From IMG/VR virus record IMGVR_UViG_3300027541_000132: a DNA stretch of 64,000 nt; one strand, written 5' to 3'. Below the pieces are notes generated by a model. The model had not been told where the DNA came from and did not search any database. It saw only the letters and a program-made list of their open reading frames with translations. Both the position numbers and the translations under genes were made by a program. This document shows positions 36,936 through 50,205 of this stretch, piece by piece (positions within the stretch are counted from its first letter, which is position 1; each line of letters starts with the position of its first letter). The DNA is from a virus.

Positions 36936-39095
36936 TTATGCTTCCAATTGTAGTAGTTTTACTGTAACAGTAATAGCCGCTGTTGAGCCGCTTCTGTTAA
37001 CTACTTTAATTTGTATATCTGTAGTTGGACTAGATTCATCGTTATAGCCAAATACACCAGGAGTAAATGTTTGTGTTTGTGCTCCGGTAGTAATTACCTC
37101 AGCAATTACTCCACTACCTGGTACTGGATCATCTGTAATTGCACGACTAGCATCTGCTGTACGTGCCGCAGAAGATGTATAAACAGTTACCCAAGCCGCC
37201 GCACTAGTTTGAATACTTAATAACGCATAACCACTGAAGCCTGTAATTGTAGCATTAGCACTGGCTAAGTTTGCTATCGAAGAAGTAGTAACAGAACGTG
37301 TTGTTCTGGTCGATAGTGTACCACCGCCGCCCCCGCCACCAGTTGCATCGGTATCATTAACCCATGCACTACCATTCCATTTTAAAACTTGCCCAACACT
37401 TGGACTAGAAACAGTCACATCTGCCAGGTCATTAATACTGGCCGTAGAAATATCTGTGCCACCACCTCCGCCGCTAATTGTTGTCCATGCCAATGTTCCT
37501 GAACCGTTTGTTGCTAGAACTTGTCCACTGGTTCCGTCTGTGGCTGGGAATGTGAACCCTGGAAATCTTGTTGTGCCGTTTTCTTTGAATACCCATGTAG
37601 GCTTGGTAATATCGTTGAACGTTTGAATATAGATATCGTTCTCAGCATATAGCCCCCAACCAATAGTTGGACCTGCTAGGAATTCTTTCCAACCAACTGA
37701 TGCTTGTCCATTGGCAGCACTGCCTGCATTAATAATACCGTTGTTAGGTAGTGTTACTGAACCGTCTGTATTAAATGTAAAATCTTTAGTACCGTTTGTA
37801 GTTAATTTAACACCGGTATTATTTAAAATAATTTTATTAGTATATGCGCTATGACTTACACCCCAGTTAAGTGTAATGCTACCTGCGGTATCGGCAACAT
37901 TAATGGCAAACGGGTCGTTAGTATTTCTTGTATATCCGTCCACAGCCAATGTACCGTTGTCAAATGCAATAGTGCCACCTGCTGGTAATGTTAGAGTACC
38001 ATCGTCTCCAAATATCCAACCATGCACGGTTGCACCATAGTTACCAGTTGAAATCTTTACTGCCTTTAATCCATCGGAATCAGAATTAAAGCCAATGGTC
38101 GCCAAATCGAGACCGTTAGAAGATGTCCAGCCTACTAATATCTGAGAATTATTACCCGGTGCCGCAATATGTATTGATTCATTTAGTGCCTGAATCATCA
38201 TCGTTCCGAGACTTGGGCTATAGTCGCCTAACTTAGCAATTTTTAAATTAGTAGGAAAATCTAACGCACCGTCTGTACCAAATGACCAAGTATTAGTACT
38301 ATTAGTAATCGAAGGAGTTGTGACGTCTGCAAATTCTACGCTATCTGTTGTGTTTAAATTTTGATTAGGTGCATCTAACAAATCGTTATAACTTACACTC
38401 TGACCAATAGTTGCACTTAAAGTGGTAGCAGTTGCTTGACAGCGAACAGCGAAAGGAATCTGTTGCCAATCGGACGCTACAAAGGAGGCAAACGGATCAG
38501 TTACGCCACCGATGTAAACATACATATAATCTGTACAGATTGTAGCAACATCAACAACTCCATTGATATCGCTGTCAGAATAGTGGTTACCGCCAGTGTC
38601 TACGGTGGCGCCGCTGATATAACCATCAGCATCTAATGTTGCAGAATACGTTGCTCTGATCCATCCATAGGGAACAGTTAGTTGTGTACCACCTAATACT
38701 GCCCATGCAAAAGCATCGATTAATTTAACATTTAAAGCGTTCCCCCATGTTCTGTCTTGTACTGGACCTGCTTTGGGATAGACTTCAACTGCTTGGTGTC
38801 CAGTAGGATCATAAACACCAGGAAGAATAACCTGTCCATTAGTAGTTGCTGATAGTTTGGCATCGCCAATATACACAGATCCAGAACCAACATATAAACT
38901 GTGCCAACGATTTGTAGGGCTACCTAAGTTGTATGTTAAATCACTGTCTGGAACAATATTTTGTGATACTGCTGAAAAGTCACCTTCTGGAATTGTAGTG
39001 TACAATTCTCCGATCATTGTATCAATCTTTTTTAAGGCTGATCCTAACGGTTCTCTACTAATGCCGTCGCCTAAATTTAATGGTGTATATGCCAT
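36936..39095 (-). CDS. Tail-fibre protein (719 aa)
   Basis: N-terminus 'LNLGDGISREPLGSALKKIDTMIGELY' is a variant of the motif. Contains poly-Gly runs (GGGGGGG, GGGGG) and a β-rich sequence. Confidence 0.7.
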   Translation of the reverse strand: MAYTPLNLGDGISREPLGSALKKIDTMIGELYTTIPEGDFSAVSQNIVPDSDLTYNLGSPTNRWHSLYVGSGSVYIGDAKLSATTNGQVILPGVYDPTGHQAVEVYPKAGPVQDRTWGNALNVKLIDAFAWAVLGGTQLTVPYGWIRATYSATLDADGYISGATVDTGGNHYSDSDINGVVDVATICTDYMYVYIGGVTDPFASFVASDWQQIPFAVRCQATATTLSATIGQSVSYNDLLDAPNQNLNTTDSVEFADVTTPSITNSTNTWSFGTDGALDFPTNLKIAKLGDYSPSLGTMMIQALNESIHIAAPGNNSQILVGWTSSNGLDLATIGFNSDSDGLKAVKISTGNYGATVHGWIFGDDGTLTLPAGGTIAFDNGTLAVDGYTRNTNDPFAINVADTAGSITLNWGVSHSAYTNKIILNNTGVKLTTNGTKDFTFNTDGSVTLPNNGIINAGSAANGQASVGWKEFLAGPTIGWGLYAENDIYIQTFNDITKPTWVFKENGTTRFPGFTFPATDGTSGQVLATNGSGTLAWTTISGGGGGTDISTASINDLADVTVSSPSVGQVLKWNGSAWVNDTDATGGGGGGGTLSTRTTRSVTTSSIANLASANATITGFSGYALLSIQTSAAAWVTVYTSSAARTADASRAITDDPVPGSGVIAEVITTGAQTQTFTPGVFGYNDESSPTTDIQIKVVNRSGSTAAITVTVKLLQLEA

Positions 39096-39185: not shown

Positions 39186-39779
39186 TTATTCGTCTTCCCA
39201 GGGTACAGGAATCCAACCTAGTTTAAGTAAATCTGCTTCTATTTCTTCTGTAACAATGCCTTCGGGCACATATCCTGTACGCTTTTGCCATTGTTCATTA
39301 GTTTCTTTAGCATCGTACTCTTGATTAAGTCCGCCCATACCTGAACAGTACCAATCAATGTAATCACCTTCTTGACGCATATCTGCAACAATGCCGCCAG
39401 CACTACGCCAACTAGCACTCCACAAATCTTTGTCAGGATCTTGTCGCAGATAAGGAAACATTTCTTTACGAACAAAACGCATATTACACATAGCCGCATA
39501 AAGATTCTGTGCATAGGCATCGCTGTTACGAACCTTGGCTAGAATCCAATCTGTACTACGTAGGTCGTATTCTAAATTATTTTCCTGCCATTCGGGGTTA
39601 GACATGTTTTCTTCGTCTTGTTCACGAAAGGTTTTAAAAAGATTTAAGTAATCTTCTCTAGGCTCTTTACCTTCTTCCGCACAACGTTCGATATATCCGT
39701 TTAATTGAAAACTATGACGCTCTGGGCTTGAGCTTATTTTAACGTTTGTATCCGGTGAATCCGAGTTTTCTGTAGGCAT
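39186..39779 (-). CDS. Hypothetical protein (197 aa)
   Basis: ORF-track entry. Confidence 0.5.
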   Translation of the reverse strand: MPTENSDSPDTNVKISSSPERHSFQLNGYIERCAEEGKEPREDYLNLFKTFREQDEENMSNPEWQENNLEYDLRSTDWILAKVRNSDAYAQNLYAAMCNMRFVRKEMFPYLRQDPDKDLWSASWRSAGGIVADMRQEGDYIDWYCSGMGGLNQEYDAKETNEQWQKRTGYVPEGIVTEEIEADLLKLGWIPVPWEDE

Positions 39780-40272
39780 TACGCACTCCTATAGCCTGTC
39801 GTTTAGCATCTTCTAACGCATTGTGTTTTGCATCCTGCGGCATTTCAGGATCTGCTAGTTCAAACAATGTACGTGTGTCACGCATTTCCCAGAAGTTCCA
39901 AGGATATGCACGACCTAATTTTTCGTAGATATTCTGCAAAATCATTAAGTCAAAAGTAGCACCGTGACTCCAAAAATGACTGCACCCCCATGCTAGTGCA
40001 TGAAACTGATTAATAACTTCATGGATTGGAATACGATCCCTTGGATCAAATGCTTCCTCCATGATGTTAGTATCCTGCTGATTCCACCATTTTAGTGTGT
40101 CGTCGCTTACAGTACAACCTAGAGCATCTTGGCTGTCTATCTCCACACGCAGATAAAGTTCTTTCATGGGTGCATTTGTAAACGGATCAAACCTTACTGC
40201 GCCCAAGGTAAGAATAGTTGCTGTAGTCTTTGTGTCAAGAGTTTCCAAGTCGACCATTAAGTGTTGTGCCAT
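39739..40272 (-). CDS. DEDDh 3'-5' exonuclease (T4 DexA-like / DnaQ family)
   Basis: Exo I 'VDLETLD', Exo II 'HGATFDLMIL' and Exo III 'HNALEDAKRQA' are present. Confidence 0.8.
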   Translation of the reverse strand: MAQHLMVDLETLDTKTTATILTLGAVRFDPFTNAPMKELYLRVEIDSQDALGCTVSDDTLKWWNQQDTNIMEEAFDPRDRIPIHEVINQFHALAWGCSHFWSHGATFDLMILQNIYEKLGRAYPWNFWEMRDTRTLFELADPEMPQDAKHNALEDAKRQAIGVRNAYRKLGFTGYKR

Positions 40273-40275
40273 ATA

Positions 40276-40638
40276 TTATACCAGAATGAAAATGATTAAA
40301 AGATAACCTAGTTGATGAGCCATTTGATCTAGGCCTAAATGATTCCAAAATTCCTTAGTAGTAATATCTCTATTACCCCAATTCATTTTAGCCCAGTCTA
40401 TGTGGTAGTGCATTATAAAATCTAACGCACCCATAGCCAGTGCTACATTAAGATTGGCCACAGTTAGCACGACTACGGTTGTACCAAAGCCGTGTTTTAG
40501 ACTGTGTTTAATGCCACGCCAGTCGAGATAAATTCCTTTATGCTTGACCTCTTCGTCACTTTGATTAACAAAGTCAATGTACCAATGCTTAACCTGAAGT
40601 AAAGCCAATAGAATGAGTGCAATAGTTAGATAGTCCAT
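40276..40638 (-). CDS. Small membrane protein (120 aa)
   Basis: N-terminal hydrophobic helix 'LTIALILLALLQV' and a second at the C-terminus. Confidence 0.5.
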   Translation of the reverse strand: MDYLTIALILLALLQVKHWYIDFVNQSDEEVKHKGIYLDWRGIKHSLKHGFGTTVVVLTVANLNVALAMGALDFIMHYHIDWAKMNWGNRDITTKEFWNHLGLDQMAHQLGYLLIIFILV

Positions 40639-40676
40639 GCTTATGATTATACTATCTTATTAATGTAAAGTCAAGT

Positions 40677-40862
40677 TTACTTCTTGGGTTTATCGTTCGA
40701 TTCGTCCAAATCGTAGTATTCGTTTTTCATTATTGCTTCATCAAACTTTTCTGCATCTGTCTTTTTATTTTTTCGAAAAATGTTATCGTAATTATTACGA
40801 TAGTTGTCAGTGACTCCTTTGGTTTGAATAGAGTCGCCTGTGATGTCGTTTCTTGCTACCAT
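40677..40862 (-). CDS. Hypothetical protein (61 aa)
   Basis: ORF-track entry. Confidence 0.35.
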   Translation of the reverse strand: MVARNDITGDSIQTKGVTDNYRNNYDNIFRKNKKTDAEKFDEAIMKNEYYDLDESNDKPKK

Positions 40863-40898
40863 ACCACACTCCTTAAAAGTATAGTTATCTGGAGAAGG

Positions 40899-41357
40899 TC
40901 AAGTTCTCCAGATTTCCTTAAAGCCTTCGTCTTCGGTTGGCATTTCAAAAGTATCAATCATGCTACGCATAACTGAATCTGGAATGTTCTTGCCTGGACG
41001 ACTGGCTAAACGTCGATCCAATTCTTCCTTTTTAGGAGTTGGAAATACCACAGCAATATGTTCATAGTTAGGCAACATATTGAACTTACGCTTACGGCTC
41101 TTAATCGAAACACTGGTCTGATCCCAGATGATATCTAAATTATTTGCCTTACAAATTTCGACTTGGTTAGCCATCAACTTTACGGCAATAGGCATATATT
41201 CATCAAAAACTTCGTTGTAGGTTTTACCCATTTTTTCAGCGTATTCTTCCACAAACTTATCTGTGCTAACCACAGGAATATCCTTAGCCCAGTCTTGATT
41301 CTTAATCCAAGTGCTCTTACCTGCACCTGGCACTCCGATTAATTGATAACACTTCAT
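40899..41357 (-). CDS. pnk: Polynucleotide 5'-kinase (T4 Pnk kinase-domain-like, P-loop), kinase-only
   Basis: Walker A 'LIGVPGAGKSTW' and C-terminal 'IPDSVMRSMIDTF' parallel the T4 Pnk kinase domain (GCPGSGKSTW ... VPIDVLRSMYKSM). No phosphatase domain is present. Confidence 0.75.
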   Translation of the reverse strand: MKCYQLIGVPGAGKSTWIKNQDWAKDIPVVSTDKFVEEYAEKMGKTYNEVFDEYMPIAVKLMANQVEICKANNLDIIWDQTSVSIKSRKRKFNMLPNYEHIAVVFPTPKKEELDRRLASRPGKNIPDSVMRSMIDTFEMPTEDEGFKEIWRT

Positions 41358-41614
41358 GGTTGAAAGTTGTCCCTTCCTTTTGTATGCTTACTGATTTCGG
41401 CTAAGGTTGCCCTTAGCATTTGAATTTCCATTGCGGCTTCTTCTAACAAGTTAGCAATCTTGTCGGGCTTACCTTCTGTGACTGCTAACCTGCCAGGAAT
41501 CTGCCTACGTATCTCTGCTCGTTTATACAAGCGGAACACTAGGCTTTGCTCTGCTACAGGCAAATGACTTTCATCTTCACATCTCATACTGTCTCCATAT
41601 AGTTGCGTACCCAA
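41354..41614 (-). CDS. Hypothetical protein (86 aa)
   Basis: ORF-track entry. Confidence 0.4.
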   Translation of the reverse strand: MGTQLYGDSMRCEDESHLPVAEQSLVFRLYKRAEIRRQIPGRLAVTEGKPDKIANLLEEAAMEIQMLRATLAEISKHTKGRDNFQP

Positions 41615-42468
41615 GATAAACGAGCTTGCTCGTCCATAGCAGTATACTCCTCAATGTTAGCACGGATAGCATCCACTAGTGGATAGTATTCTTCGTCTAA
41701 ATTGTGCTTGATGTCTTTGTTCAAGTCTACTAACTTGTCTGTGCGTGGATTGCGAGCAACCCACTTTGAAGTCAAGTAGTAAGGTGACTTGATCTTAGAA
41801 CCAACGCCGTCCTTAGTATAGAATACAAAACCTTCGTGCTTAACAGTCTTTACTAGAGCCTTTAACTCGCCTACTGTAGTAGTAAAGATATCCACAGGGA
41901 GGCATCCAAGATGCTTGCCCAAAGGTTCTAGCGTAAACTTTTCGTAGTATAACTTACCGTTCCAGTCTTTGTGACGGAATCCGATAAAGTACAGTCCAGG
42001 TTCTTCAGGTATGATGTGTGGGTCAGTTGGATGAACGCACTCAAACATAAAAGTAAAATCTGGGGCACATCTTAGTACATCACGGAAGTTATCAGTGATA
42101 TATTCCTTTGCCATATCGACAAACTCGCCTGAAGTAGAACCTGTTGTTGAAACTAGGATATCTCCATTGTGCCAAGTCATAGCAACCATAAAGCCGTTAA
42201 CTTTACGAAGTGCTGTGATCTCAGTATCGTCGGATAGCACTGGTGCTTCCTTTTCAATACCATAGTTATAGATCTTTGTGAATGGTCGTTGTACTACATT
42301 AAACTCAGAGTCTACAATAGTACCTCGACATTCGGCGATGTATTCGTTCCACAAGTTATCGTAGAACACTTTCTTCTTGTACTTTAGCACATAGATACCA
42401 TCGCCACATTCTTTCATGTTGACTAGGTTACTAGTGTTTACATACTCCTTCAATTCATCTTTAAACAT
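41584..42468 (-). CDS. rnlA: RNA ligase 1 (T4 RnlA-like)
   Basis: 'IAECRGTIVDSEFNVVQRPFTKIYNYGIE' parallels T4 RnlA 'ALECRGIMFEMDGE...SRPMEKFFNLNENP'. The nucleotidyltransferase motif I 'RKVNGFMV' (KxNG) is present. Start taken at Met 'MFKDELKEY'. Confidence 0.75.
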   Translation of the reverse strand: MFKDELKEYVNTSNLVNMKECGDGIYVLKYKKKVFYDNLWNEYIAECRGTIVDSEFNVVQRPFTKIYNYGIEKEAPVLSDDTEITALRKVNGFMVAMTWHNGDILVSTTGSTSGEFVDMAKEYITDNFRDVLRCAPDFTFMFECVHPTDPHIIPEEPGLYFIGFRHKDWNGKLYYEKFTLEPLGKHLGCLPVDIFTTTVGELKALVKTVKHEGFVFYTKDGVGSKIKSPYYLTSKWVARNPRTDKLVDLNKDIKHNLDEEYYPLVDAIRANIEEYTAMDEQARLSWVRNYMETV

Positions 42469-43009
42469 GATGACCCTTAATTTCGTTGTTTTTAATTCTG
42501 CCAATCGCATATTCCATTGACACAACAATCTCACCGGTTGAATCCATACCTACATCGAATGCACGATACTTTTCTAATCCACTAACACCTCCGTGTAAGT
42601 GACCATGAAAATGTAATGCTCCTCTGTGCATTTGATCCCACTCAGCAATCGGATAGTGAAACATGACAATCTTGTGACCATCATATGTAATATCCAAATA
42701 CTCGTGTACTTCTGCAAACGCACCACGGAACGTTTCGTCCATCAATGTCTTACGGTCATGATTTCCTCTAATTAAAATCTTTGTGCCATTCAAACGCTTT
42801 ACCATTCTACCAGCATCACTACCTGACATGAACGCTACATCGCCTAAGATGTAGACTGTGTCTTCAGGTTTGACTTTATGGTTCCATTCTTCGGCCATGG
42901 CGTTGTTCATATATGCAACGTCGTCTTTAAATCGTGCTCTCGTCACTGGACAGAACTTCATGATGTTCTTATGTCCAAAGTGTAAGTCGCTTGTAATCCA
43001 TGTTTTCAT
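42461..43009 (-). CDS. Calcineurin-like metallophosphoesterase (lambda-PPase / Pnkp-phosphoesterase-like)
   Basis: 'ITSDLHFGH', 'GDVAF', 'GNHD' and 'FHGHLHGG' motifs are present. Start taken at ATG 43007-43009 because the upstream part of the track ORF is unlikely to be coding. Confidence 0.75.
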   Translation of the reverse strand: MKTWITSDLHFGHKNIMKFCPVTRARFKDDVAYMNNAMAEEWNHKVKPEDTVYILGDVAFMSGSDAGRMVKRLNGTKILIRGNHDRKTLMDETFRGAFAEVHEYLDITYDGHKIVMFHYPIAEWDQMHRGALHFHGHLHGGVSGLEKYRAFDVGMDSTGEIVVSMEYAIGRIKNNEIKGHHV

Positions 43010-43042
43010 TTTTTCGCTCTTCTTTCTTGTTATATTATACAG

Positions 43043-43068
43043 CCAAAAGAACGCCCTGTCAACTCTCG
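43043..43068 (-). terminator. Rho-independent terminator
   Basis: GCCCTGTC-(10 nt)-GACAGGGC hairpin followed by a T-rich tract on the minus strand, downstream of the phosphatase gene stop at 43090. Confidence 0.6.
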
Positions 43069-43089
43069 AAGACAGGGCAAATGTTGTTT

Positions 43090-43557
43090 TTATACAACGG
43101 GCTTGTATGTGCGCCAATCGTCGATGTTGGGCTTTTCGTCCGCATCGTAGGTCCAACCCAAGGCTCGCATCATTCTGTGCTTAACGAGCAGATTAGGGCT
43201 TCTAAACCGCCCTGTATCCTGAAAGCCCAGCATTACGCCTACTTCGCATACAGCACCGCTACGACAAATTCCAGCAAAACAATGAACAACAACGTTCATT
43301 TTGTTATCCAAAGCGTGTTGTAAAAGAGCCACAAGTTGATTGGCTTGTTCTTGACTACACTTCATTGCTTCGTCGTCTACGTGGTCGTTTTCCTCCACGT
43401 CCAAAAATTCAAAGTTATGAATTTCCTTGAACTTATGGGCAGGAGTAGGACGCCAGCTCGCCGGGTCAACGATACTAATCAGCATACTATTTTCGCCTGC
43501 TTCGTGATGAAATCTTTTTGGGATATCATCGGCGGCTACATTTTCAATCCAAGGCAT
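43090..43557 (-). CDS. Dual-specificity / protein-tyrosine phosphatase
   Basis: 'VVHCFAGICRSGAV' matches the CX5R P-loop signature (HCxAGxxRSG). Confidence 0.8.
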   Translation of the reverse strand: MPWIENVAADDIPKRFHHEAGENSMLISIVDPASWRPTPAHKFKEIHNFEFLDVEENDHVDDEAMKCSQEQANQLVALLQHALDNKMNVVVHCFAGICRSGAVCEVGVMLGFQDTGRFRSPNLLVKHRMMRALGWTYDADEKPNIDDWRTYKPVV

Positions 43558-43937: not shown

Positions 43938-44309
43938 TTACTCCTTTACAAAATCAACTCTTTCACTGTAATAGCCATTCGATTGACCTAGCCAACGAAT
44001 GTCCACATAACCCTTGCGAGTTGCAAACTTGTAGAAAGTCCATGTGTAAGACTCGTATGCTTCGAAGTCGGCTGGGCTTTCGCCATCAACTTCTTCTGCT
44101 ATTAGAATCTCTGAACCTACTAAGTCCTGCAAATCGCCGACTATGCTTTCTATGCTTACGCTTTCGCAACAGTCTTGCTCGTGATACATACGATAGCGTT
44201 CGCCATCTGTGGTTTCAAAAACGATCTCGTCGCCACTCTCGTTGATGTTGGACAAAGTCTTGCCCTTCAACACATCAACGTTACAATATTCTCTGTCCCA
44301 ATATCCCAT
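43938..44309 (-). CDS. Hypothetical protein (123 aa)
   Basis: ORF-track entry. Confidence 0.45.
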   Translation of the reverse strand: MGYWDREYCNVDVLKGKTLSNINESGDEIVFETTDGERYRMYHEQDCCESVSIESIVGDLQDLVGSEILIAEEVDGESPADFEAYESYTWTFYKFATRKGYVDIRWLGQSNGYYSERVDFVKE

Positions 44310-44537: not shown

Positions 44538-44578
44538 TCAATTATTATATCTTCACTTCAATATTTTGTCAATTGGTC

Positions 44579-44653
44579 CCGCTACTACGAATCGAACGTA
44601 GACTTACTCTTTAGGAGAGAGTCGTTCTATCCATTGAACTATAGCGAGGGAGG
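44579..44653 (-). tRNA. tRNA-Arg (anticodon CCT)
   Basis: Minus-strand cloverleaf with encoded CCA, T-arm CTACG/AATCGAA/CGTAG (plus view) and anticodon loop CTCCTAA. Confidence 0.75.
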
Positions 44654-44658
44654 GAATT

Positions 44659-44767
44659 TGGTGTGACCGGGAGGGTTCGAACCTCCAAGGACGGCATATC
44701 GCCTAGTCCCGACCCACGGAGTGTTTCACAACAGTCCTGGAGCTCTGCCTATTCGCTCACGGTCACA
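44659..44767 (-). tRNA. Atypical long tRNA-like element (109 nt), anticodon undetermined
   Basis: Encoded CCA, 7-bp acceptor (GTGACCG/CGGTCAC) and canonical T-arm, but about 35 extra nt with no standard anticodon arm. An AGGAC...GTCCT stem encloses a 41-nt insert. Confidence 0.35.
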
Positions 44768-44797
44768 TACTAAGTATATAACCTTTTCAGCAGTTTG

Positions 44798-45253
44798 TCA
44801 ACGGGTTATGAGGTATTCGTAGTTCACTGTGTTGTCGTTTTCTTGCAACACACAGGCACCATTTCTGATATGGAACTTGTAGGCCATTTCAGTTTTTGGG
44901 CTAAGTGTTACAAAACGATTAACAGTTGGGAAAAGTTCTTTTATTTGATCCACTACACCAAAAAGTAGCTCTGCGGCCGCACCCGGCGCATAACTCCAAA
45001 TTGTATAGAAGATTGCTGTAGTTGGTTCTGTGGGTGTTTTAGCCAAATCTTCAACAGTTGTTGGCACAAAATCGTGCAGACTAACACAGACCATTGCACG
45101 TGGTTTTTCGCCTTCTACAGTGGTGGCGACAAATCTGCTACCGCTAACACGAAATTCTTTGGGAATTTCTGGACGTACTGGATCATCCTTGATATAGTCA
45201 AGTAATGGATTAGTAGTTTCTCTGATTAATGTTAGCATATAACTATTTAGCAT
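44798..45253 (-). CDS. Hypothetical protein (151 aa)
   Basis: ORF-track entry embedded in the tRNA region. Confidence 0.5.
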   Translation of the reverse strand: MLNSYMLTLIRETTNPLLDYIKDDPVRPEIPKEFRVSGSRFVATTVEGEKPRAMVCVSLHDFVPTTVEDLAKTPTEPTTAIFYTIWSYAPGAAAELLFGVVDQIKELFPTVNRFVTLSPKTEMAYKFHIRNGACVLQENDNTVNYEYLITR

Positions 45254-45276
45254 TTAGTGGGCAGATTATGGTGTTA

Positions 45277-45351
45277 TGGTGGTAACGGTGAGATTCGAAC
45301 TCACACCTTGCTCCGTATGAAGGAGGTGCACGACCATTATGCTACGTTACC
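45277..45351 (-). tRNA. tRNA-Met (anticodon CAT)
   Basis: CCA encoded, T-arm GTGAG/ATTCGAA/CTCAC, anticodon loop TTCATAC. Confidence 0.75.
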
Positions 45352-45890
45352 AGATTATTAGTAAGATGTCCCGAGAGTTTTGGTTTGGGTAAGGCCATCC
45401 GACGGTGCGATTCGTCCCTCTCTTTGTCTAGCCCAACATGAAGTTCTTGTAGTCTCAATCCGCTCACCTTGCACCGGCGCTTGATACATATACTCTACAG
45501 CATTAAAGTTTATAACTTCAATTAACAAAAACTTCCGATCTTTGTTAACTCCTTGCGGATGCTTTTAGAACCTTAACTACTTACTAATAAAAGGGGTGGA
45601 GAGAGAAAGGCAAGTAATAGACTGGACAATGTACAAGCGGGCTCTATAAAGATACCCTTAACAAGTCACAAGGCGCAAAGCACAGGGACCTGTATATTTC
45701 CAGTTAGCAACTCACAAAGTCGATTAATATATAGAACTGGTTCACACAAGCACGAAACGTTTTCAAGACGTTTTGCCAGTAGTTGATGTTCGGTCTCTAT
45801 AAGAGATCAAACCTTAGGCATGTAGCCTAAGTCTGTCTATCCTAATCTCCTTCTCTACTCCAGGCTCGGGCTTTCGCCTTTGCCAAAACT

Positions 45891-45964
45891 TGGTTGCGGG
45901 ACCTGGAATCGAACCAGGATCTAGAGCTTATGAGACTCTTGAGTTACCGTTTCTCTATCCCGCG
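45891..45964 (-). tRNA. tRNA with CAT anticodon (Met or Ile2) with C1·A72 mismatch
   Basis: CCA encoded, T-arm CCTGG/AATCGAA/CCAGG, anticodon loop CTCATAA. The acceptor stem has a terminal C·A mismatch. Confidence 0.6.
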
Positions 45965-45977
45965 ATAACTTTATAGG

Positions 45978-46093
45978 TGCTCTCTGTTCGACTCGAACGA
46001 AACCTGCTGAGCTCCTTATCTTCCTGGCACTTTCGGTGGGTAGTCGACTTAGCACCTAACTCGTGTTATCCAGTGTAGTTCAGCTCAGAGAGC
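45978..46093 (-). ncRNA. Long tRNA-like element (116 nt) with canonical T-arm and 7-bp acceptor pairing
   Basis: GCTCTCT...AGAGAGC acceptor complementarity spans 116 nt. The T-arm GTTCG/TTCGAGT/CGAAC is perfect. No CCA is encoded. The internal region was not foldable by eye. Confidence 0.3.
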
Positions 46094-46301
46094 ATTTATA
46101 AAGTGTCTAGCCACTCCCACCACAGGAGCCCTAAACCGAGCTGTTACTCTGTCCACTAGCCTTTCCATTTAGACGGTGCTGAGGTCCGCCTTTGTGATTT
46201 CTCAAGTCGCTTTAAACAAGCCTTGCGGTAGATCCAATGCACCGAGCCATTAAGGTGTAGCAATTACCTAACTCTATCACGCTGAGTTAACGCGGGGTCT
46301 G

Positions 46302-46874
46302 TTACAGTAAACCTTCTGCTTGCAGAACTGCTTCTGTTTTGTCAGACAATTGGATAGTTGTCTGAACATTTAACTCTAGGATTTCATCCTGAAGTTTTTG
46401 TTTCTGCTTTTTAGCAGTTGCCACTCTACGACGGAATCCGTCTAGATCTTCACGAGTGAGCACACTAGTGTCTACTGTGTCGTTGTAGCCATAGATGCTA
46501 CGACGGTTTTCGCTTTTGTCGTTACGGATCTTGTCCAAACGACCTGCTACAACCTTTGCGCTTTCGCGAACGGTCTTACTAGCCAATCCGTTGTAGAATT
46601 GGATTTGTTTTTCTAGATGTGCAACATCGGCCAATCTAGTGTCGATTCTAACTTCTGTGTTAGCACCGCTGACACTTTTACGAATCTCGTAAAGTGCTTC
46701 CACTAACGCATCTCTGCGTGTAAGGTTGTCGCAGAGTGTTCCTGCAACTTTGGAAATTTCTTGTTCCGCTTCTTGGAACTCGTTGATTTTTACTGTGGTC
46801 TCAAACTGGAAACCTTTGACGGTATCGTTGATACTGTTCTGAAGTGCATTTGCCTTACGTAGGGAGATATTCAT
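46302..46874 (-). CDS. Coiled-coil hypothetical protein (190 aa) within the tRNA array
   Basis: The track ORF's N-terminus runs through tRNA-Gly, so the start was trimmed to Met 'MNISLRKANALQ' (ATG 46872-46874). Confidence 0.5.
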   Translation of the reverse strand: MNISLRKANALQNSINDTVKGFQFETTVKINEFQEAEQEISKVAGTLCDNLTRRDALVEALYEIRKSVSGANTEVRIDTRLADVAHLEKQIQFYNGLASKTVRESAKVVAGRLDKIRNDKSENRRSIYGYNDTVDTSVLTREDLDGFRRRVATAKKQKQKLQDEILELNVQTTIQLSDKTEAVLQAEGLL

Positions 46875-46940
46875 TTGTTTTTCCTTTAATGTTTCTATTA
46901 TACAATCTTTTAAATCTAAATCAATGCCTTTTGGCAAAAC

Positions 46941-47016
46941 TGGAGCGGGAGACGAGGTTCGAACTCGCGACATTTACCTTGGCAAGGTAATGCTCTACCA
47001 ACTGAGCTACTCCCGC
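46941..47016 (-). tRNA. tRNA-Gly (GCC)
   Basis: CCA encoded, acceptor GCGGGAG/CTCCCGC, anticodon loop TTGCCAA. Confidence 0.8.
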
Positions 47017-47064
47017 ATATGAAGAACCTAAGGCAAAGTTTATAACTTATCCAAAGGCCATATA

Positions 47065-47140
47065 TGGTACACGGTACGGGAATCGAACCCGTCTTACTGA
47101 CGTGAAAGGCCAGTGTCCTAAACCGATAGACGAACCGTGC
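47065..47140 (-). tRNA. tRNA-Glu (TTC)
   Basis: CCA encoded, T-arm ACGGG/AATCGAA/CCCGT, anticodon loop CTTTCAC. Confidence 0.7.
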
Positions 47141-47146
47141 ATTACT

Positions 47147-47222
47147 TGGCTCCCCAGGGTGGGATCGAACCACCGACACCCTGATTAACAGTCAGGTGCT
47201 ACTACCGCTGAGCTACTAGGGA
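47147..47222 (-). tRNA. tRNA-Asn (GTT)
   Basis: CCA encoded, anticodon stem CCTGA/TCAGG, loop CTGTTAA. Confidence 0.8.
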
Positions 47223-47229
47223 ATAAACT

Positions 47230-47304
47230 TGGTACCTGGTGACAGTTTCGAACTGCCGACCCTCTCGGTGTAAACGAGACGCTCTACCACTGAGCTAACC
47301 AGGC
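47230..47304 (-). tRNA. tRNA-Val (TAC)
   Basis: CCA encoded, anticodon stem TCTCG/CGAGA, loop TTTACAC. Confidence 0.8.
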
Positions 47305-47314
47305 AAACTAACAT

Positions 47315-47391
<77 letters not shown>

Positions 47392-47396
47392 AATGA

Positions 47397-47472
47397 TGGA
47401 GCGGGAGGCGAGAGTTGAACTCGTCTATTTCAGTTTGGAAGACTGACGTGTAACCACAAACACTTCACCCGC
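47397..47472 (-). tRNA. tRNA-Gly (TCC)
   Basis: CCA encoded, anticodon stem TCAGT/ACTGA, loop CTTCCAA. Confidence 0.75.
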
Positions 47473-47478
47473 ATATTT

Positions 47479-47563
47479 TGGTGCCCCAGGAGAGACTCGA
47501 ACTCTCACGGCTCTCGCCACTGGCTTCTAAGACCAGCGTGTCTACCATTCCACCACCAGGGCA
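47479..47563 (-). tRNA. tRNA-Leu (TAG), type II
   Basis: 85 nt with a long variable arm, CCA encoded, anticodon loop CTTAGAA. Confidence 0.8.
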
Positions 47564-48367
47564 TTAACTGACAATACTATTTAAGTATTCCTGAATTGTC
47601 GTTGCAATTTTTTCTTGCACAGACAATTTAATTTTTGCATTCTCACCATTAGCACTCATATACTGTTTTCCGTATTCAGTACAATCTATACCAGTGTGCA
47701 TAAACTCTTTAAAAATTTCTGAGTTGTCAGGATTAGGATCTCCAAACCTAACAGTCGTCCATTTAATATTTTGAGAATCTAAAAACTTAATTAACATATT
47801 GTAACCATTTCTATGTCTACGAATATGCCAATCTTTGCTTTGACTTTTTTGAAAAGCAATACCGTTTAATCGCTTTTTATGAACTTCAATTGGATATCTA
47901 TCTGGATTCCATTCTCCGTCTACATAATTTTCACGTTCAAATACATATCGTTGATTGTTATATTTGAAACTGTGTGCTATATGACTAAACGTGTAATCTG
48001 TAACTAATACATGATCCGGTTTAGGATTCTCTGCTAGGTACTGTTTTAATCTTTTGTGATGACCTATAAAATGTCCACCGTTAATAGATATATTAACTAC
48101 ATTGGAAACATTTAAGAAATTAGGCCATGCGGCTTTTTGTTCTTCTTCCCATAGATAATGCCAAACAACATTTTCCATATTGCCATTGGGCATAGGTGTT
48201 GTAACATTGTTTTCTTTTCTATGTTTTAGATACCATTTAAAAACACTTCTAAAATCATTATGGAAACGTAGACTCCAAGTCCTCGGAGCATCGTCGTTGA
48301 CTATGTCACCAGCCAAACAATTATTGCCATTACTTTGGCAATCTCCTAAAATTAAAAGTGTTTTCAT
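47564..48367 (-). CDS. SGNH/GDSL-hydrolase-like protein (267 aa) inside the tRNA array
   Basis: N-terminal 'LILGDCQSNGNN' resembles the GDS(L) block I. Confidence 0.5.
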   Translation of the reverse strand: MKTLLILGDCQSNGNNCLAGDIVNDDAPRTWSLRFHNDFRSVFKWYLKHRKENNVTTPMPNGNMENVVWHYLWEEEQKAAWPNFLNVSNVVNISINGGHFIGHHKRLKQYLAENPKPDHVLVTDYTFSHIAHSFKYNNQRYVFERENYVDGEWNPDRYPIEVHKKRLNGIAFQKSQSKDWHIRRHRNGYNMLIKFLDSQNIKWTTVRFGDPNPDNSEIFKEFMHTGIDCTEYGKQYMSANGENAKIKLSVQEKIATTIQEYLNSIVS

Positions 48368-48381
48368 ATTAATAGTTATCT

Positions 48382-48458
48382 TGGCGCACCGTAGGGGACT
48401 TGAACCCCTGGCCTCCGACGTGACAGGCCGGCGCTCTGACCAACTGAGCTAACGGTGC
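48382..48458 (-). tRNA. tRNA-Asp (GTC)
   Basis: CCA encoded, T-arm AGGGG/ACTTGAA/CCCCT, anticodon loop CTGTCAC. Confidence 0.8.
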
Positions 48459-48597
48459 AAATTCTATTCTGAAACACACTAACCAACTACCAGAAGCATT
48501 TATAATGCCGTTATTCGGTTCGAGCTAATGTGTTTTAGAATAGTGCTAACGCTGAGATTATACGTTAGCCAATAGTGCCTCTAGCATTATAGTCAGC

Positions 48598-48827
48598 CTT
48601 GCGAGCCAACCTTCTCTAGACATCCACATAAGCCATTACTGTACCTATGTCCACTATCAGCATCGCCGTTTTTAAAGACAGGCAGTAGTCTTGTCGCCAT
48701 ATGCTATTCTACGCTATCTACTCCGTTGACCTTGCGAGCCATTCAGCGGCGCTAACCACTTACGAAACTTCCAGCATAAACAGATTTCACCTTGCGAGCT
48801 ACGTCTGACTCGATTACCTTGCGGCTC
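48598..48827. repeat. Four copies of CCTTGCGrGC motif in an ORF-free island
   Basis: CCTTGCGAGC at 48598, 48731 and 48791, and CCTTGCGGCT at 48818. Related CCTTGCGG is seen at 45551, 46221 and 49213. Confidence 0.6.
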
Positions 48828-48876
48828 GAGTATTAGATGCTTTTCACATATGACCGAGGCAGTCTTTGCATTTTAT

Positions 48877-48949
48877 AATCGATAGTTGGGATCGAACCAA
48901 CAGTCCATTGCTTAAGAGGCAATTGCGTTACCATTACGCTATATCAAAC
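48877..48949 (-). tRNA. tRNA-Lys (CTT)-like, no encoded CCA, U1·U72
   Basis: T-arm GTTGG/GATCGAA/CCAAC, anticodon stem ATTGC/GCAAT, loop CTCTTAA. The acceptor stem's terminal pair is mismatched. Confidence 0.55.
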
Positions 48950-49598
48950 CTACCGCGATGAGCTGCCTCTGTTGCTCAATAACCTTTTGGATTACTGAAT
49001 ACAACTCACCACATACCTTTTGTCTCGCGGACTACTCAGTGATATTTCACGATCAATGTCCTGCATCAAAACAGTCCACTAACCATTAATATTGCATACA
49101 AGCCCTTAGGAGCGACCCCTTGGACAAATACACTACCCTTTCTCATACCAATTCGCAAGTTGGTTTTGTTAGGAAGTCAGCACCACCCGTTACTTTTCAT
49201 GCACCCTGGTTCCCTTGCGGGCCAGTCGATACACATTCTTTCCCTAACACTTGCTTCATTGTTACATCCACCGGTCTTCTCAGTGAACGCTACCTCGCGG
49301 TAGTGAGCAGGCTTGTTTACATGAACCATTACTGGCGGAGTTGCGTAGGCTTACCTCCTTTGGGTTGATCACTCAACTTATTCTTCGTCAACGGCGAACC
49401 GCCAACAGGATAATAAACTACCCTTAAATTTTTACCATTAAAAAATAACATTACACCCTATGGGATGAAACGTATTTCTGAGTGGAGTTCGATTCTCCTC
49501 ATAAGCCATTGTTCACGGTTTTCTCAGAAGGGTAAGATGGCCTTATCCTTCATAAGTCTATGCGTCCATAGACGATACCCGTCAATGCTATTTCTTAA

Positions 49599-49684
49599 TG
49601 GTGGATGCGGCTGGAGTCGAACCAGCAGTGCCGTAAGGCGGCGGATTTACAGTCCACTGGGGTTACCAATTTTCCTACACATCC
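49599..49684 (-). tRNA. tRNA-Tyr (GTA), type II
   Basis: 86 nt, CCA encoded, T-arm GCTGG/AGTCGAA/CCAGC, anticodon loop CTGTAAA. Confidence 0.75.
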
Positions 49685-49771
49685 ATATCTGCTTGAAATT
49701 TTTAAAGAACTAGGTTAATTTCTTAACTAGTCTCTATTGTATATGAACTTTAGAAACTAGTCAAGACATTT

Positions 49772-49866
49772 TGGCAGTGAGTAAGGGATTCGAACCCTTG
49801 ATCCCCGTTTTTGCAGGAATGCCTTCTTAGCAGGAAGGTGCCTTCGACCAGCTCGGCCAACTCACT
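49772..49866 (-). tRNA. tRNA-Ser (GCT), type II
   Basis: 95 nt, CCA encoded, anticodon stem CCTTC/GAAGG, loop CTGCTAA. Confidence 0.75.
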
Positions 49867-49910
49867 ATATTTGTATTATACGATCAACTGTTAAACAAGT
49901 CAACACCTTT

Positions 49911-50000
49911 TGGCCGAAGCGGTGAGATTCGAACTCACGGACCCTTTCGGATCGTCTGTTTTCAAGACAGGTGCAATAAACCGGACTCTGCCACGCTTCG
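49911..50000 (-). tRNA. tRNA-Ser (TGA), type II
   Basis: 90 nt, CCA encoded, anticodon loop CTTGAAA. Confidence 0.7.
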
Positions 50001-50046
50001 TTGTTTTACTTGTATAATTCGTTGTAGATAGAATCTGCTACAAATG

Positions 50047-50124: not shown

Positions 50125-50129
50125 ATATC

Positions 50130-50203: not shown

Positions 50204-50205
50204 CT

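Follow-up and report, generated by a model that had tools for sequence, protein, structure and literature searches.

The window, the whole 64,000-nucleotide stretch of DNA analysed here, from an uncultivated large phage (IMG/VR record IMGVR_UViG_3300027541_000132), contains a gene set which is probably a tRNA end-healing and sealing operon with its enzymes encoded as separate proteins, a reading to which we assign a probability of about 0.65.

Gene content and layout

The putative tRNA-repair gene set is intact and lies entirely on the minus strand, and the gene calls of 155, 182, 294, 77, 152, 61, 120 and 177 aa are identical in a second, independent assembly of the same phage. An ORF check recovered the five genes named in the initial annotation (exonuclease, kinase, ligase, phosphoesterase and dual-specificity phosphatase) as intact ORFs at the coordinates given there, although that list was incomplete, having missed the conserved 77-aa gene between the ligase and the kinase. 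The features of the locus are:

44574-52230, minus strand: tRNA array, 31 genes (ARAGORN; Rfam tRNA matches)
44544-44572, minus strand: promoter-like TTGACA-17-TATAAT, 12/12 (consensus scan; pattern match only)
43090-43557, minus strand: putative CX5R phosphatase, 155 aa (Pfam, AF2, Foldseek)
43034-43062, minus strand: promoter-like TTGACA-17-TATAAT, 12/12 (consensus scan and direct sequence reading)
42461-43009, minus strand: metallophosphoesterase (MPE), 182 aa, binuclear, aq_1665-like (PF00149, phrog_547, PDB 1xm7)
41584-42468, minus strand: predicted Rnl1-family ATP-dependent RNA ligase, 294 aa (phrog_562, TIGR02308, BLASTP against T4 RnlA)
41354-41587, minus strand: p77, helical conserved protein, 77 aa (conservation in related loci)
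40899-41357, minus strand: predicted Pnk-family polynucleotide 5'-kinase without phosphatase domain, 152 aa (AAA_33, TIGR04075, profile against PDB)
39739-40862, minus strand: p61, DUF3307 membrane protein and DEDDh exoribonuclease (Pfam)
40674-40646: promoter-like site near the p61/DUF3307/exonuclease stretch (pattern scan)
39739-40272, minus strand: DEDDh exoribonuclease, Rv2179c-like, 3'-5' (PF16473)
39174-39157: terminator-like hairpin (same scan as the promoter-like sites)

All of these genes lie on the minus strand, which puts the tRNA array upstream of the gene set in terms of transcription. The two are co-oriented, as originally described, but the set follows the array instead of directly preceding it, and three small ORFs (about 1 kb) lie between them. 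The promoter-like site at 44544-44572 comes right after the last array tRNA (Arg-CCT) and before p72-p123-p122-phosphatase, and the one at 43034-43062 occupies the gap between the phosphatase and MPE genes, with the MPE start codon 25 nt further on. The MPE, ligase, p77 and kinase genes follow a perfect sigma-70-like consensus and are chained by overlapping stop and start codons: read directly, the MPE stop overlaps the ligase start (ATGTTTAA), while p77 overlaps the ligase stop and the kinase start, each via ATGA. The MPE and the ligase are translationally coupled. The p61, DUF3307 and exonuclease genes are probably a transcription unit separate from the conserved module. Near the cluster there are also a 719-aa ORF (36936-39095) with PHROG matches solely of unknown function and one of 884 aa that matches a protease weakly; clear tail and baseplate genes are located at ~15.6-21.3 kb.

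RNA ligase and kinase

The product of 41584-42468 is assigned to the Rnl1 family on the basis of its similarity to phrog_562 (the T4 RnlA family, 2.7e-50), TIGR02308 (6.7e-8, well under the equivalog cut-off) and T4 RnlA itself (BLASTP 3e-7, with the catalytic residues aligned). Counterparts of T4 Arg54, Lys75, Lys99, Gly102, Glu159, Glu227, Gly228, Lys240 and Lys242 are invariant family-wide, and the Rnl1 nucleotidyltransferase motifs, on which the initial assignment depended, are retained at positions aligning with the T4 Rnl1 catalytic residues. The protein is shorter than its T4 relative (294 vs 374 aa), lacks the distal ~55-80 residues of the T4 Rnl1 C-terminal domain and has Thr109 in place of T4 Lys119. 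According to work from the Shuman laboratory, it is this C-terminal domain that reportedly gives T4 Rnl1 its tRNA specificity.

The truncation would suit a rather unlikely alternative, namely a kit for RNA (or nucleic-acid) end repair in general, with no dedication to tRNA. Its substrates would be whatever transcripts, rRNAs and even DNA ends had been damaged by toxins of the host (mRNA interferases, colicins that cut rRNA or Cas13-type collateral RNases, for instance), and the tRNA proximity would reflect no more than a shared early-expressed 'translation support' region. T4 Pnk-family kinases, which are established to use both DNA and RNA, are in line with such a kit, whereas Rnl1-family ligases are known to seal single strands or loops and the physiological substrate in T4 is tRNA, which argues for dedicated tRNA repair.

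On profile comparison the kinase falls within the Pnk/Pnkp clade and is of the kinase-only type. It matches AAA_33 (Pfam, 9e-17) and TIGR04075 (NCBIfam, bacterial Pnkp, 4.3e-7), and its profile retrieved Pnkp1 (6.8e-15), T4 Pnk (8.4e-12), PSTK (1e-10), CthPnk (2.7e-10) and mammalian PNKP (2e-7) from the PDB, unrelated kinases appearing only at 1e-5 or worse; NCBIfam and PHROGs rank the relatives in the same order. The top solved relatives are thus either repair-system 5'-kinases for RNA/DNA or a kinase that acts on tRNA, and the earlier description of a stand-alone 152-aa kinase domain, with no phosphatase domain attached, stands without reassignment to an unrelated P-loop kinase. A dNMP kinase identity for 40899-41357 was rejected, as the profile favours Pnkp1, T4 Pnk and CthPnk. 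Conserved residues include P-loop K14/S15, D33, R116 and R120. The residue three positions past the catalytic Asp, Arg38 in T4 Pnk, is Val36 here and varies within the clade. The closest cultured homologue is encoded by Caulobacter phage Cr30, in a gene directly 3' of an RNA ligase.

Two phosphatases and other proteins

The MPE matches PF00149 and phrog_547 (3.6e-53), and its five metal-binding motifs (D8-x-H10, G56-D57, G82-N83-H84-D85, H118 and G136-H137-x-H139) are all invariant. Its profile found PDB entry 1xm7 (aq_1665) at 2.3e-27 and GpdQ weakly, but not the CthPnkp and lambda-phosphatase domains. The separate phosphoesterase of the initial annotation is therefore real, motif-complete and binuclear, but its likening to bacterial Pnkp does not go beyond analogy. 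The MPE domains of CthPnkp and lambda phosphatase take off 2',3'-cyclic phosphates (PMC2190708), and a 2',3'-cyclic phosphodiesterase/3'-phosphatase activity is proposed for the MPE here. Its family is present in ~1534 phage records, vs 766 with this ligase, and includes phages without such a ligase, so the MPE is not intrinsically an RNA-repair enzyme. The nearest NCBIfam match is the DNA-repair-linked PdeM family (3.7e-5), which would also fit a general end-repair kit.

The CX5R protein carries the motif HCFAGICRS (H92-C93-x5-R99-S100) and scores 29.1 bits against PF22785 (cut-off 27), 29.7 bits against DSPc (under its cut-off of 33.5) and 20.6 bits against PF22784 (below the cut-off of 27). 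Its AF2 model (pLDDT 88), for which Foldseek placed atypical DUSPs and VH1 on top (TM about 0.5), indicates a cysteine phosphatase with a dual-specificity-phosphatase fold. PF22784 bears the Pfam name 'Swiss Army Knife protein, DSP-PTPase phosphatase domain', and Swiss Army Knife proteins are predicted RNA-repair proteins; the CX5R phosphatase differs from them in its sub-threshold score and in being small and stand-alone, as is its whole family, in which no RNA-repair domain fusions were found. The one cultured-phage homologue lies 6-7 kb away from genes for an MPE and a kinase, and no RNA ligase was found within ±10 kb of it.

For p77, no Pfam or PHROG family match was found, nor any structural neighbour of its AF2 model (pLDDT 86). 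The exonuclease belongs to PF16473 (Rv2179c-like, 4.9e-38) and displays the DEDDh residues D8/E10, D108 and H150/D155. No match to the Hen1 2'-O-methyltransferase was obtained among the genes at 39.2-45.3 kb or the other window ORFs scanned.

Synteny in related phages

The search for the same synteny, suggested earlier, was successful. Two sets were used: a strict one of 22 related viral contigs on which the module has 5 kb or more of sequence to either side, and a wider one of 82 related loci. The phosphatase-MPE-ligase-p77 block is kept in 21/22 loci and the kinase is present in 17/22, at four different positions in the cluster. In 16 of the 22 a close kinase homologue accompanies the kept block, always co-oriented and within 2.8-10.9 kb; in one further locus the ligase is immediately preceded by a small, divergent P-loop kinase, and in five no kinase was seen within the flanks examined. 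In the wider set, the MPE occurs in 81/82 loci, p77 in 72/82 and a CX5R phosphatase adjoining the MPE in 73/82. This clustering exceeds chance by far. The exonuclease, in contrast, which had been counted as part of the set, is beside the module in 0/82 loci, DUF3307 in 5/82 and p61 in 3/82, placing all three outside the conserved module though inside the 39739-43557 interval.

It is very unlikely that these are functionally independent early genes, with the MPE and cysteine phosphatase serving as protein or nucleotide phosphatases for host takeover, the kinase acting on small molecules and the RnlA homologue working mainly in tail-fibre attachment, in which T4 gp63 also takes part. The structural neighbours of the cysteine phosphatase are indeed protein phosphatases, the MPE family is very common in phages, AAA_33 kinases include gluconokinase-like enzymes, and the cluster adjoins a virion-type region (the 719-aa and 884-aa ORFs). 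However, MPE, ligase, p77 and kinase are translationally coupled, the set survives four gene-order rearrangements, the triad is repeated in unrelated cultured phages, the kinase profile puts polynucleotide kinases 5-10 orders of magnitude over small-molecule kinases, and the nucleotidyl-transfer residues of the ligase are invariant.

Association with tRNA arrays

Rather than the ~36 tRNA genes counted originally, ARAGORN detected 31 in the array and a further one at 57354, plus a tmRNA, which is permuted (two-piece). In related loci all the neighbouring tRNA genes (509/509) are co-oriented with the module, 19 of the 32 loci that could be evaluated have a tRNA within 3 kb upstream of it, and tRNAs flank it on both sides in 7/22. 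Such tight linkage, with the module between tRNAs in several loci, speaks against a general end-repair kit.

GOLLD RNA is found within the same tRNA arrays as the module, which, together with the permuted tmRNA, the 3'-5' exoribonuclease just downstream in this genome and the unusual length of some array tRNAs (e.g. Ile-TAT, 90 nt by ARAGORN), would be compatible with a role in maturing the RNA island of the phage itself, for example through trimming, remodelling of ends, or ligation of split or permuted pieces of tRNA/GOLLD precursors. This reading is nevertheless improbable: RNase P and RNase Z/exonucleases leave 5'-P and 3'-OH ends in bacteria, making a kinase and a ligase superfluous, the exonuclease is syntenic in no related locus, the triad also occurs in phages without an annotated tRNA gene within ±5 kb, and neither ARAGORN nor Rfam detected a split tRNA gene.

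Comparison with known systems

In T4, Pnkp and Rnl1 mend PrrC-cut tRNA-Lys (PMC10264068). T4 Pnkp (PseT) and RnlA (gp63) are likewise phage-encoded, have a kinase and a ligase homologous to those described here, and by analogy the chemistry would be the same (5'-OH kinase, 2',3'-cyclic/3'-phosphate removal, ATP-dependent sealing), with a counter-defence role against anticodon nucleases presumed in both. The T4 kinase is fused to a DxDxT acyl-phosphatase, whereas the kinase here is a free-standing protein accompanied by a binuclear MPE as the separate phosphatase; the cysteine phosphatase and the 77-aa protein are additions. The genes here form one operon beside a tRNA array, while T4 rnlA (136340-137464) is near pseT, with alc and pseT.1-3 between them, and the T4 tRNA cluster is elsewhere in the genome.

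A Pnk-type kinase, an ATP-dependent ligase and a metallophosphoesterase are likewise brought together in Clostridium thermocellum Pnkp/Hen1 and Capnocytophaga gingivalis Pnkp1-Rnl-Hen1. Among solved structures Pnkp1 comes closest to our kinase, and the ligase of Pnkp1-Rnl-Hen1 is a separate polypeptide as well. The bacterial kinase, however, is fused to its MPE, the latter is of a branch resembling lambda phosphatase that went undetected by the profile of our MPE, and the ligase is of a family other than Rnl1.

The true closest relatives are the separate MPE/ligase/kinase genes of the cultured phages Pseudomonas phage M5.1 (gp33/gp31/gp29), Escherichia phage 4MG (100/103/106), Ralstonia phage RSP15 (ORF094/097/098) and Acidovorax phage ACP17, which are of the same three families, adjacent and in one orientation, and match the profiles from this locus at 1e-40 to 1e-44 (MPE), 1e-68 (ligase) and 1e-6 to 1e-10 (kinase). 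Their kinases are shorter (130-135 aa) and more divergent, and they lack the CX5R phosphatase and p77. RSP15 has a tRNA cluster just upstream of the set, as here, whereas no tRNA genes are annotated within ±5 kb of it in M5.1, 4MG and ACP17; the 4MG and M5.1 triads adjoin DNA ligase and NAD-salvage genes, which would again agree with a general kit. No biochemical characterisation of these four sets was found in the literature.

Phage RNA-repair assemblies were reportedly predicted by computation by Burroughs and Aravind in 2016. Jumbo-phage ATP-grasp RNA ligases accompany polynucleotide kinases and phosphoesterases, the phosphatase being calcineurin-like in a few phages, and tRNA provisioning and RNA repair are regarded as parallel counter-defences (Iyer et al. 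2021, PMC7824862); PTPase has 0 occurrences in that paper, and repair genes embedded in tRNA arrays are not mentioned there. The arrangement can thus no longer be called unusual, the principle having been described and the three genes lying side by side in the four cultured phages; since cultured phages commonly carry this core, the gene set is a modest variant and not a new kind of system.

Proposed pathway

In the tRNA-repair reading, the operon would be expressed together with the tRNA array of the phage itself. The binuclear MPE would open and then remove the cyclic phosphate to leave a 3'-OH, while the cysteine phosphatase may take a 2'- or 3'-monoester step or deal with another phosphorylated RNA end. 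The Pnk-type kinase, through P-loop K14/S15, the general base D33 and the lid arginines R116/R120, would phosphorylate the 5'-OH, and the Rnl1-type ligase, adenylylated at K89, would seal the 3'-OH/5'-PO4 nick. The most likely role of the operon is to mend tRNAs whose anticodon loop has been cleaved by defence ribonucleases of the host. The link between the module and co-oriented tRNA arrays recurs throughout a large phage clade, and two features are specific to this clade: the extra cysteine phosphatase and a position inside a tRNA array with a GOLLD RNA.

Gene layout of a probable RNA repair operon

The minus strand carries every gene between 39.1 and 45.3 kb of the window, among them the five genes hereafter referred to as the repair operon or module, which code for a CX5R phosphatase, a metallophosphoesterase (MPE), an Rnl1-family RNA ligase, a conserved 77-aa protein (p77) and a kinase. 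The remaining small ORFs are named by their length in amino acids.

Features of the region in transcription order (window coordinates)
52230-44574 (-), tRNA array, 31 genes, first in transcription order
between the array and the phosphatase (-), three small ORFs, p72, p123 and p122
43938-44309 (-), p123 (PF24240/DUF7448, phrog_2650)
43557-43090 (-), CX5R phosphatase, 155 aa
43062-43034 (-), TTGACA-17-TATAAT, perfect promoter consensus in the 80-nt phosphatase/MPE gap (pattern match, sequence read)
43009-42461 (-), MPE, 182 aa
42468-41584 (-), ligase, 294 aa
41587-41354 (-), p77, 77 aa
41357-40899 (-), kinase, 152 aa
3' of the kinase (-), p61, a DUF3307 membrane protein, then the exonuclease, then p197
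40674-40646, promoter-like site (consensus scan)
40272-39739 (-), exonuclease, 177 aa
39174-39157 (-), strong terminator-like hairpin after p197

The stop of the MPE gene overlaps the ligase start (ATGTTTAA) and an ATGA overlap is found at both the ligase/p77 and p77/kinase junctions, so that MPE, ligase, p77 and kinase look translationally coupled, a coupling that suggests a fixed stoichiometry. The perfect promoter consensus points to transcription by the host RNA polymerase early in infection. An ENA assembly with an identical ligase gives the same gene calls (155, 182, 294, 77, 152, 61, 120, 177 and 197 aa), and 96 blocks of the public collection contain the exact ligase sequence, the contigs being up to 0.2-1 Mb long. 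The window is part of a large myovirus-like phage possessing rIIA, ATP-dependent DNA ligase, baseplate and fibre genes, as well as a single 3102-aa ORF (2634-11942, -) which presumably codes for a giant virion or fibre protein. A search of the 5-kb region for near-identical DNA in cultured phages gave no match, and the phage has no close cultured relative.

RNA ligase

Judging by its sequence, the ligase is an Rnl1-family protein, but a distant and shorter one. It matches phrog_562 (T4 RnlA family) with an E-value of 2.7e-50 and T4 RnlA itself in BLASTP with 3e-7, while its TIGR02308 match (6.7e-8) reaches 32 bits against an equivalog cut-off of 242 bits, so that it belongs to the family as a distant member without being an equivalog. 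No Pfam model matched, and phmmer with the ligase as a single sequence gave no match in the PDB. A profile match to T4 Rnl1 in the PDB was set aside as circular, T4 RnlA being in the alignment.

In pairwise and multiple alignments, motif I (K89-V-N-G92, invariant in 8 diverse sequences) corresponds to T4 K99-E-D-G102, R48, K65 and Y67 to T4 R54, K75 and F77, E143 to T4 E159 (motif III), E212/G213 to T4 E227/G228 (motif IV) and K225/K227 to T4 K240/K242 (motif V); the aligned T4 Rnl1 residues are reportedly the ones found essential by mutagenesis in the Shuman laboratory. T4 K119 is replaced by a threonine, T109. The initial annotation had regarded the product of 41584-42468 as an RnlA ligase that should carry the Rnl1 nucleotidyltransferase motifs, and these are indeed present and aligned with T4 RnlA, so the assignment stands. 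The protein ends ~55-80 residues before the end of T4 RnlA, and only the proximal C-terminal part can be aligned, with K254 and D258 conserved in it. Of the helical domain that forms the C terminus of T4 Rnl1 (residues ~255-374) and is linked to tRNA specificity there, the distal part is missing.

Kinase

Pfam places the kinase only in the generic AAA_33 (9e-17); among more specific models it fits bacterial Pnkp TIGR04075 (4.3e-7), PSTK and phrog_505 "polynucleotide kinase" best. A profile built from clade sequences and four cultured-phage homologues was searched against all PDB sequences and matched Pnkp1 (6.8e-15), T4 polynucleotide kinase (8.4e-12), PSTK (1e-10), the C. thermocellum Pnkp kinase domain (2.7e-10) and mammalian PNKP (2e-7), whereas unrelated P-loop kinases (shikimate and adenylate kinases among them) scored no better than 1e-5. 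The P-loop GxxGxGK(S/T) is present as G8-VPGAG-K14-S15-T16, D33 aligns with the catalytic Asp general base of T4 (D35), and the lid arginines R116 and R120 align with the T4 R122/R126 region; K14/S15, D33, R116 and R120 are all invariant or nearly so.

If the product of 40899-41357 were an unrelated P-loop enzyme such as a dNMP kinase, the cluster could be a coincidence; the profile, the P-loop, D33 and the lid arginines place it with the Pnk clade instead, and the Pnk-type assignment is borne out by a ranking with polynucleotide kinases on top. The position of T4 Arg38, three residues past the catalytic Asp, which contacts the acceptor's phosphate, is occupied by Val36 here and by Val/Ile elsewhere in the clade, and the neighbouring position 34 is variable. 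The kinase domain spans the 152-aa protein end to end, with no fused phosphatase domain of the DxDxT or MPE type.

Metallophosphoesterase

The five metal-binding motifs of the MPE are complete (D8-x-H10, G56-D57, G82-N83-H84-D85, H118 and G136-H137-x-H139) and invariant in 10 sequences, and PF00149 is matched with 31.7 bits (cut-off 21.5). Among NCBIfam families, PdeM, a ligase-associated DNA-repair nuclease, comes closest (3.7e-5). Searched against all PDB sequences, the MPE profile found only the uncharacterised Aquifex protein aq_1665 (2.3e-27) and, weakly, GpdQ (1.4e-3), and did not detect the CthPnkp/lambda-phosphatase branch, for which removal of RNA 2',3'-cyclic phosphate by this fold has been established (PMC2190708). 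The proposal that a separate phosphoesterase acts "as in bacterial Pnkp" therefore holds in so far as there is a separate MPE of the same superfamily, but the branch itself is not matched, and the comparison is a superfamily-level analogy.

CX5R phosphatase

The P-loop HCFAGICRS (H92-C93-FAGIC-R99-S100) is invariant in the phosphatase family, as are D53, E55 and D58, located 35-40 residues upstream of it in the alignment, which may include the general acid. The protein scores above the PF22785 cut-off and below DSPc's own. Its AF2 model is confident (pLDDT 88), and Foldseek gave a probability of 1.0 to DUSP28, VH1 and DUSP12, with TM values of about 0.45-0.53 and 13-18% identity; the model has a DSP fold, whose resemblance to poxvirus VH1 and to the atypical dual-specificity phosphatases is distant. 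There are 502 clusters in the family at 50% identity, and the best 150 of these are almost all 75-225 aa long (longest 275 aa) and show no sign of fusion to RNA-repair domains.

The sole homologue from a cultured phage is that of freshwater Synechococcus phage BUCT-ZZ01, where a kinase and an MPE are 6-7 kb away and no ligase was detected within ±10 kb. Scans with the distant relatives P0230 and P0252 revealed no linkage to ligase or kinase, the scan with P0166 recovered the same clade and nothing else, and a single metagenome scan for distant relatives gave two short contigs without neighbours. In three related loci (L100 7508-8558, L101 5531-6581 and L102 3249-4104) two tandem CX5R paralogues directly precede the MPE. 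Pfam PF22784 is named "Swiss Army Knife protein, DSP-PTPase phosphatase domain"; Swiss Army Knife proteins are predicted RNA-repair proteins, so that a DSP-type phosphatase domain has already been proposed in an RNA-repair context.

p77 and neighbouring genes

p77 is helical, translationally coupled to ligase and kinase, and has a core (LVFRLRKRAEIRRQI...DRIADLLEEAA) more conserved than the ligase. It is represented by about 2500 clusters in metagenomes and belongs to no family in Pfam, PHROG or NCBIfam; the AF2 helical model is confident, and the structure search with it gave no neighbour (best E 4.5). Homologues in cultured phages Caulobacter BL47, Limnohabitans DC31 and Myxococcus Mx1 are surrounded by DNA-metabolism or unassigned genes, and those of cultured Caulobacter, Limnohabitans, Myxococcus and Rhodobacter phages have no adjacent RNA-repair genes. 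For these reasons p77 is considered only a putative member of the pathway.

The exonuclease, which the initial annotation had included in the gene set, is a bona fide Rv2179c-like DEDDh 3′-5′ exoribonuclease (PF16473, 4.9e-38) and has to be removed from it, as tblastn found it within ±10 kb in none of the 82 related loci described below. Like the DUF3307 protein and p61, the exonuclease is a local passenger, and the three probably belong to a transcription unit of their own with the promoter-like site 40674-40646. p123 may be another loosely linked gene; its homologue in Acidovorax phage ACP17 (52% identical, L001 13313-13708) directly follows the MPE. Other ORFs of the window, including two inside the tRNA array, were also scanned for RNA-repair enzymes (RtcB, CCA-adding, Hen1, 2H and KptA), and none were found.

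Conservation of the operon in related phages

The IMG/VR scan with the ligase returned 213 relatives. We kept 80 IMG/VR loci on contigs of up to 364 kb, with ligases 66-72% identical to that of the window plus one 100% identical fragment, and added Acidovorax phage ACP17 and Ralstonia phage RSP15, giving 82 loci for tblastn with the window proteins. Full-length contigs of the clade measure 145-364 kb.

Loci with a tblastn match, out of 82 (counts lowered by the truncation of many loci)
MPE, 81
phosphatase, 73
p77, 72
kinase, 49
DUF3307 protein, 5
p61, 3
exonuclease, 0

When the analysis is limited to the 22 loci in which the ligase is flanked by at least 5 kb on each side, the five genes are complete and co-oriented within 2.8-10.9 kb in 16, the close kinase homologue alone is missing in 5, in one of which a divergent 137-aa P-loop kinase abuts the ligase, and both kinase and phosphatase are missing in 1. 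Four different positions are seen for the kinase: ahead of the phosphatase, in the phosphatase/MPE interval, in the MPE/ligase interval, or behind p77. Selection for linkage is expected to produce this pattern, in which genes are rearranged repeatedly but not dispersed.

Of 32 evaluable loci, 19 have tRNA genes within 3 kb upstream of the module; for the downstream side the figure is 17 of 39, and 7 of 22 loci have tRNA genes on both sides. All 509 tRNAs detected in related loci (509/509) share the strand of the module. Given these synteny counts and the co-oriented tRNA linkage, the clustering is real and non-random. The check for the same synteny in related phages, proposed along with the first reading of the locus, has thus turned out in its favour: phosphatase, MPE, ligase and p77 are kept in 21 of 22 loci and the tRNA linkage recurs.

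tRNA array and associated RNA genes

A full-length GOLLD RNA (RF02032, 207 bits; gathering score 150) is located within the array at 48549-49012 (-), with tRNA-Lys(CTT) (48876-48949) embedded in it; the repair operon follows about 5 kb downstream. Seven related loci (L005, L009, L024, L030, L031, L035 and L057) also carry a full-length GOLLD on the strand of the module. GOLLD has previously been reported near phage tRNA islands (PMC12286853); no mention of GOLLD together with an RNA ligase or near RNA-repair genes was found in the searched literature.

Two ORFs of 223 aa (46302-46973, -) and 267 aa (47564-48367, -) within the array, also called in the independent assembly L105, have no match in Pfam or PHROG. 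tRNA-Ile(TAT) (51975-52064, -) is predicted to be 90 nt long, which is long for a class I tRNA, and possibly contains an intron or insertion; a similar 95-nt Ile(TAT) is present in L096. An isolated tRNA with the amber-reading anticodon CTA (ARAGORN label "Pyl"; Rfam tRNA score 38 bits) lies 5 kb past the main array at 57354-57427 (-) and could be a suppressor tRNA. Beyond the array, at 53074-54562 and 57640-58440 (-), there are auxiliary-looking genes coding for a CMD-family protein, a GDSL-like hydrolase, an AhpC/TSA peroxiredoxin and an SPFH/Band-7 protein; a stomatin/prohibitin gene also occurs near the kinase-MPE pair of Sinorhizobium phage phiN3.

A permuted (two-piece) tmRNA is encoded at 63118-63581 (-), with the tag peptide ANASTFEYFTVEGFTADNGLVAA; it also scores as the betaproteobacterial type (RF04321 138 bits; RF01850 129 bits), and similar tmRNAs are found in L015, L016, L024 and L066. 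The cultured relatives closest by ligase are Acidovorax, Variovorax and Ralstonia phages, which together with the tmRNA type hints at a betaproteobacterial host.

Comparison with known systems

The closest known relative of the operon is the split gene set of cultured phages rather than T4 or bacterial Pnkp. Pseudomonas phage M5.1 has the same order (phosphoesterase gp33, gp32, RNA ligase gp31, gp30, polynucleotide kinase gp29), and Escherichia phage 4MG (Vequintavirinae) encodes phosphoesterase 100, RNA ligase 103 and AAA protein 106. In both, which were left out of profile building, homology is confirmed by our profiles (MPE 1e-40 to 1e-44, ligase 1e-68, kinase 1e-6 to 1e-10). In Ralstonia phage RSP15, tRNAs are followed by kinase ORF098, ligase ORF097 and MPE ORF094, and Acidovorax phage ACP17 has ligase, kinase-like ORF and MPE. 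Partial sets are found in Caulobacter phage Cr30, where the closest kinase homologue directly follows the RNA ligase, and in phiN3, where a kinase homologue is near the MPE. In GenBank, the Rnl1-type ligase ORF097 of RSP15 (L002 8977-9912) is labelled "metallophosphoesterase" and the adjacent kinase "NEDD4-binding protein", the true MPE being ORF094. ASD50501 of ACP17 was rejected as the kinase, and a weak kinase-like ORF was found downstream instead.

The arrangement had been called unusual, a description that cannot be kept with the split set already present in M5.1, 4MG, RSP15 and ACP17 and with the principle already stated by Iyer et al. in 2021 (PMC7824862), who also mention that a few jumbo phages have calcineurin-like phosphatases. 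What sets the window clade apart is that a stand-alone CX5R phosphatase is constantly present as a fourth enzyme, that p77 is conserved and that the genes are physically embedded in large tRNA arrays. The literature search found no biochemical work on any of the split sets.

Proposed function

The locus is best read as an RNA healing-and-sealing operon, a reading we put at a probability of about 0.65, with the catalytic steps and the tRNA substrate being what we infer; as part of this reading, we are less sure that the operon is specific for tRNA than that it repairs RNA in general. Metal-independent anticodon nucleases leave 2',3'-cyclic-phosphate/5'-OH breaks, and T4 counters PrrC by healing and sealing (PMC10264068, PMC7824862). 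The gene set would supply the activities converting such a break to a sealed phosphodiester: the MPE, possibly helped by the cysteine phosphatase, would act as cyclic phosphodiesterase/3'-phosphatase, the kinase would carry out the 5'-kinase step, and the Rnl1 ligase, needing 3'-OH and 5'-PO4, would seal. Breaks with 3'-OH/5'-P ends would need the ligase alone. The position of the module in or after the tRNA array suggests that the phage combines tRNA replacement with repair.

The repair reading is weakened by the MPE family being much commoner in phages than this ligase (1534 against 766 records), by the missing distal part of the T4-type C-terminal domain in the ligase, by the kinase having no Arg38 equivalent, by some relatives having no kinase within reach and by the phosphatase having no RNA link outside the clade.

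A more far-reaching version may also be considered, in which the CX5R protein acts on an RNA end (a 2'- or 3'-monophosphate or a 5'-polyphosphate) and completes a four-enzyme healing pathway, and in which tRNA array, embedded GOLLD and repair operon form one coordinated "translation-protection island". That the protein is a new RNA-end phosphatase and that the three elements also act together seems improbable to us; if the island were real, the function of GOLLD would be tied to protection of tRNAs from host tRNases or to repair after them.

Significance

That the genes form a conserved operon is well supported. Cleavage of tRNA is a very common anti-phage strategy of bacteria (PrrC, RloC, PARIS, OLD, Cas13a, Schlafen), to which two phage answers are known, replacement tRNAs or mending of the cut ones. 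In the window locus and in a very abundant uncultivated clade around it (213 ligase relatives in IMG/VR, about 2500 phosphatase protein clusters, the exact ligase in those 96 blocks) both answers would share one co-oriented gene block. The clade represents a naturally "unbundled" Pnkp/Rnl pathway, each step of which could be assigned to one small protein, and offers a candidate extra step, the cysteine phosphatase, as well as a testable connection, at the genome level, of GOLLD RNA with enzymes of RNA repair. In cultured phage genomes the split triad is uncharacterised, some of its members having no name; if the biochemistry holds, a function would be provided for it in hundreds of genomes of cultured coliphages and Pseudomonas and Klebsiella phages.
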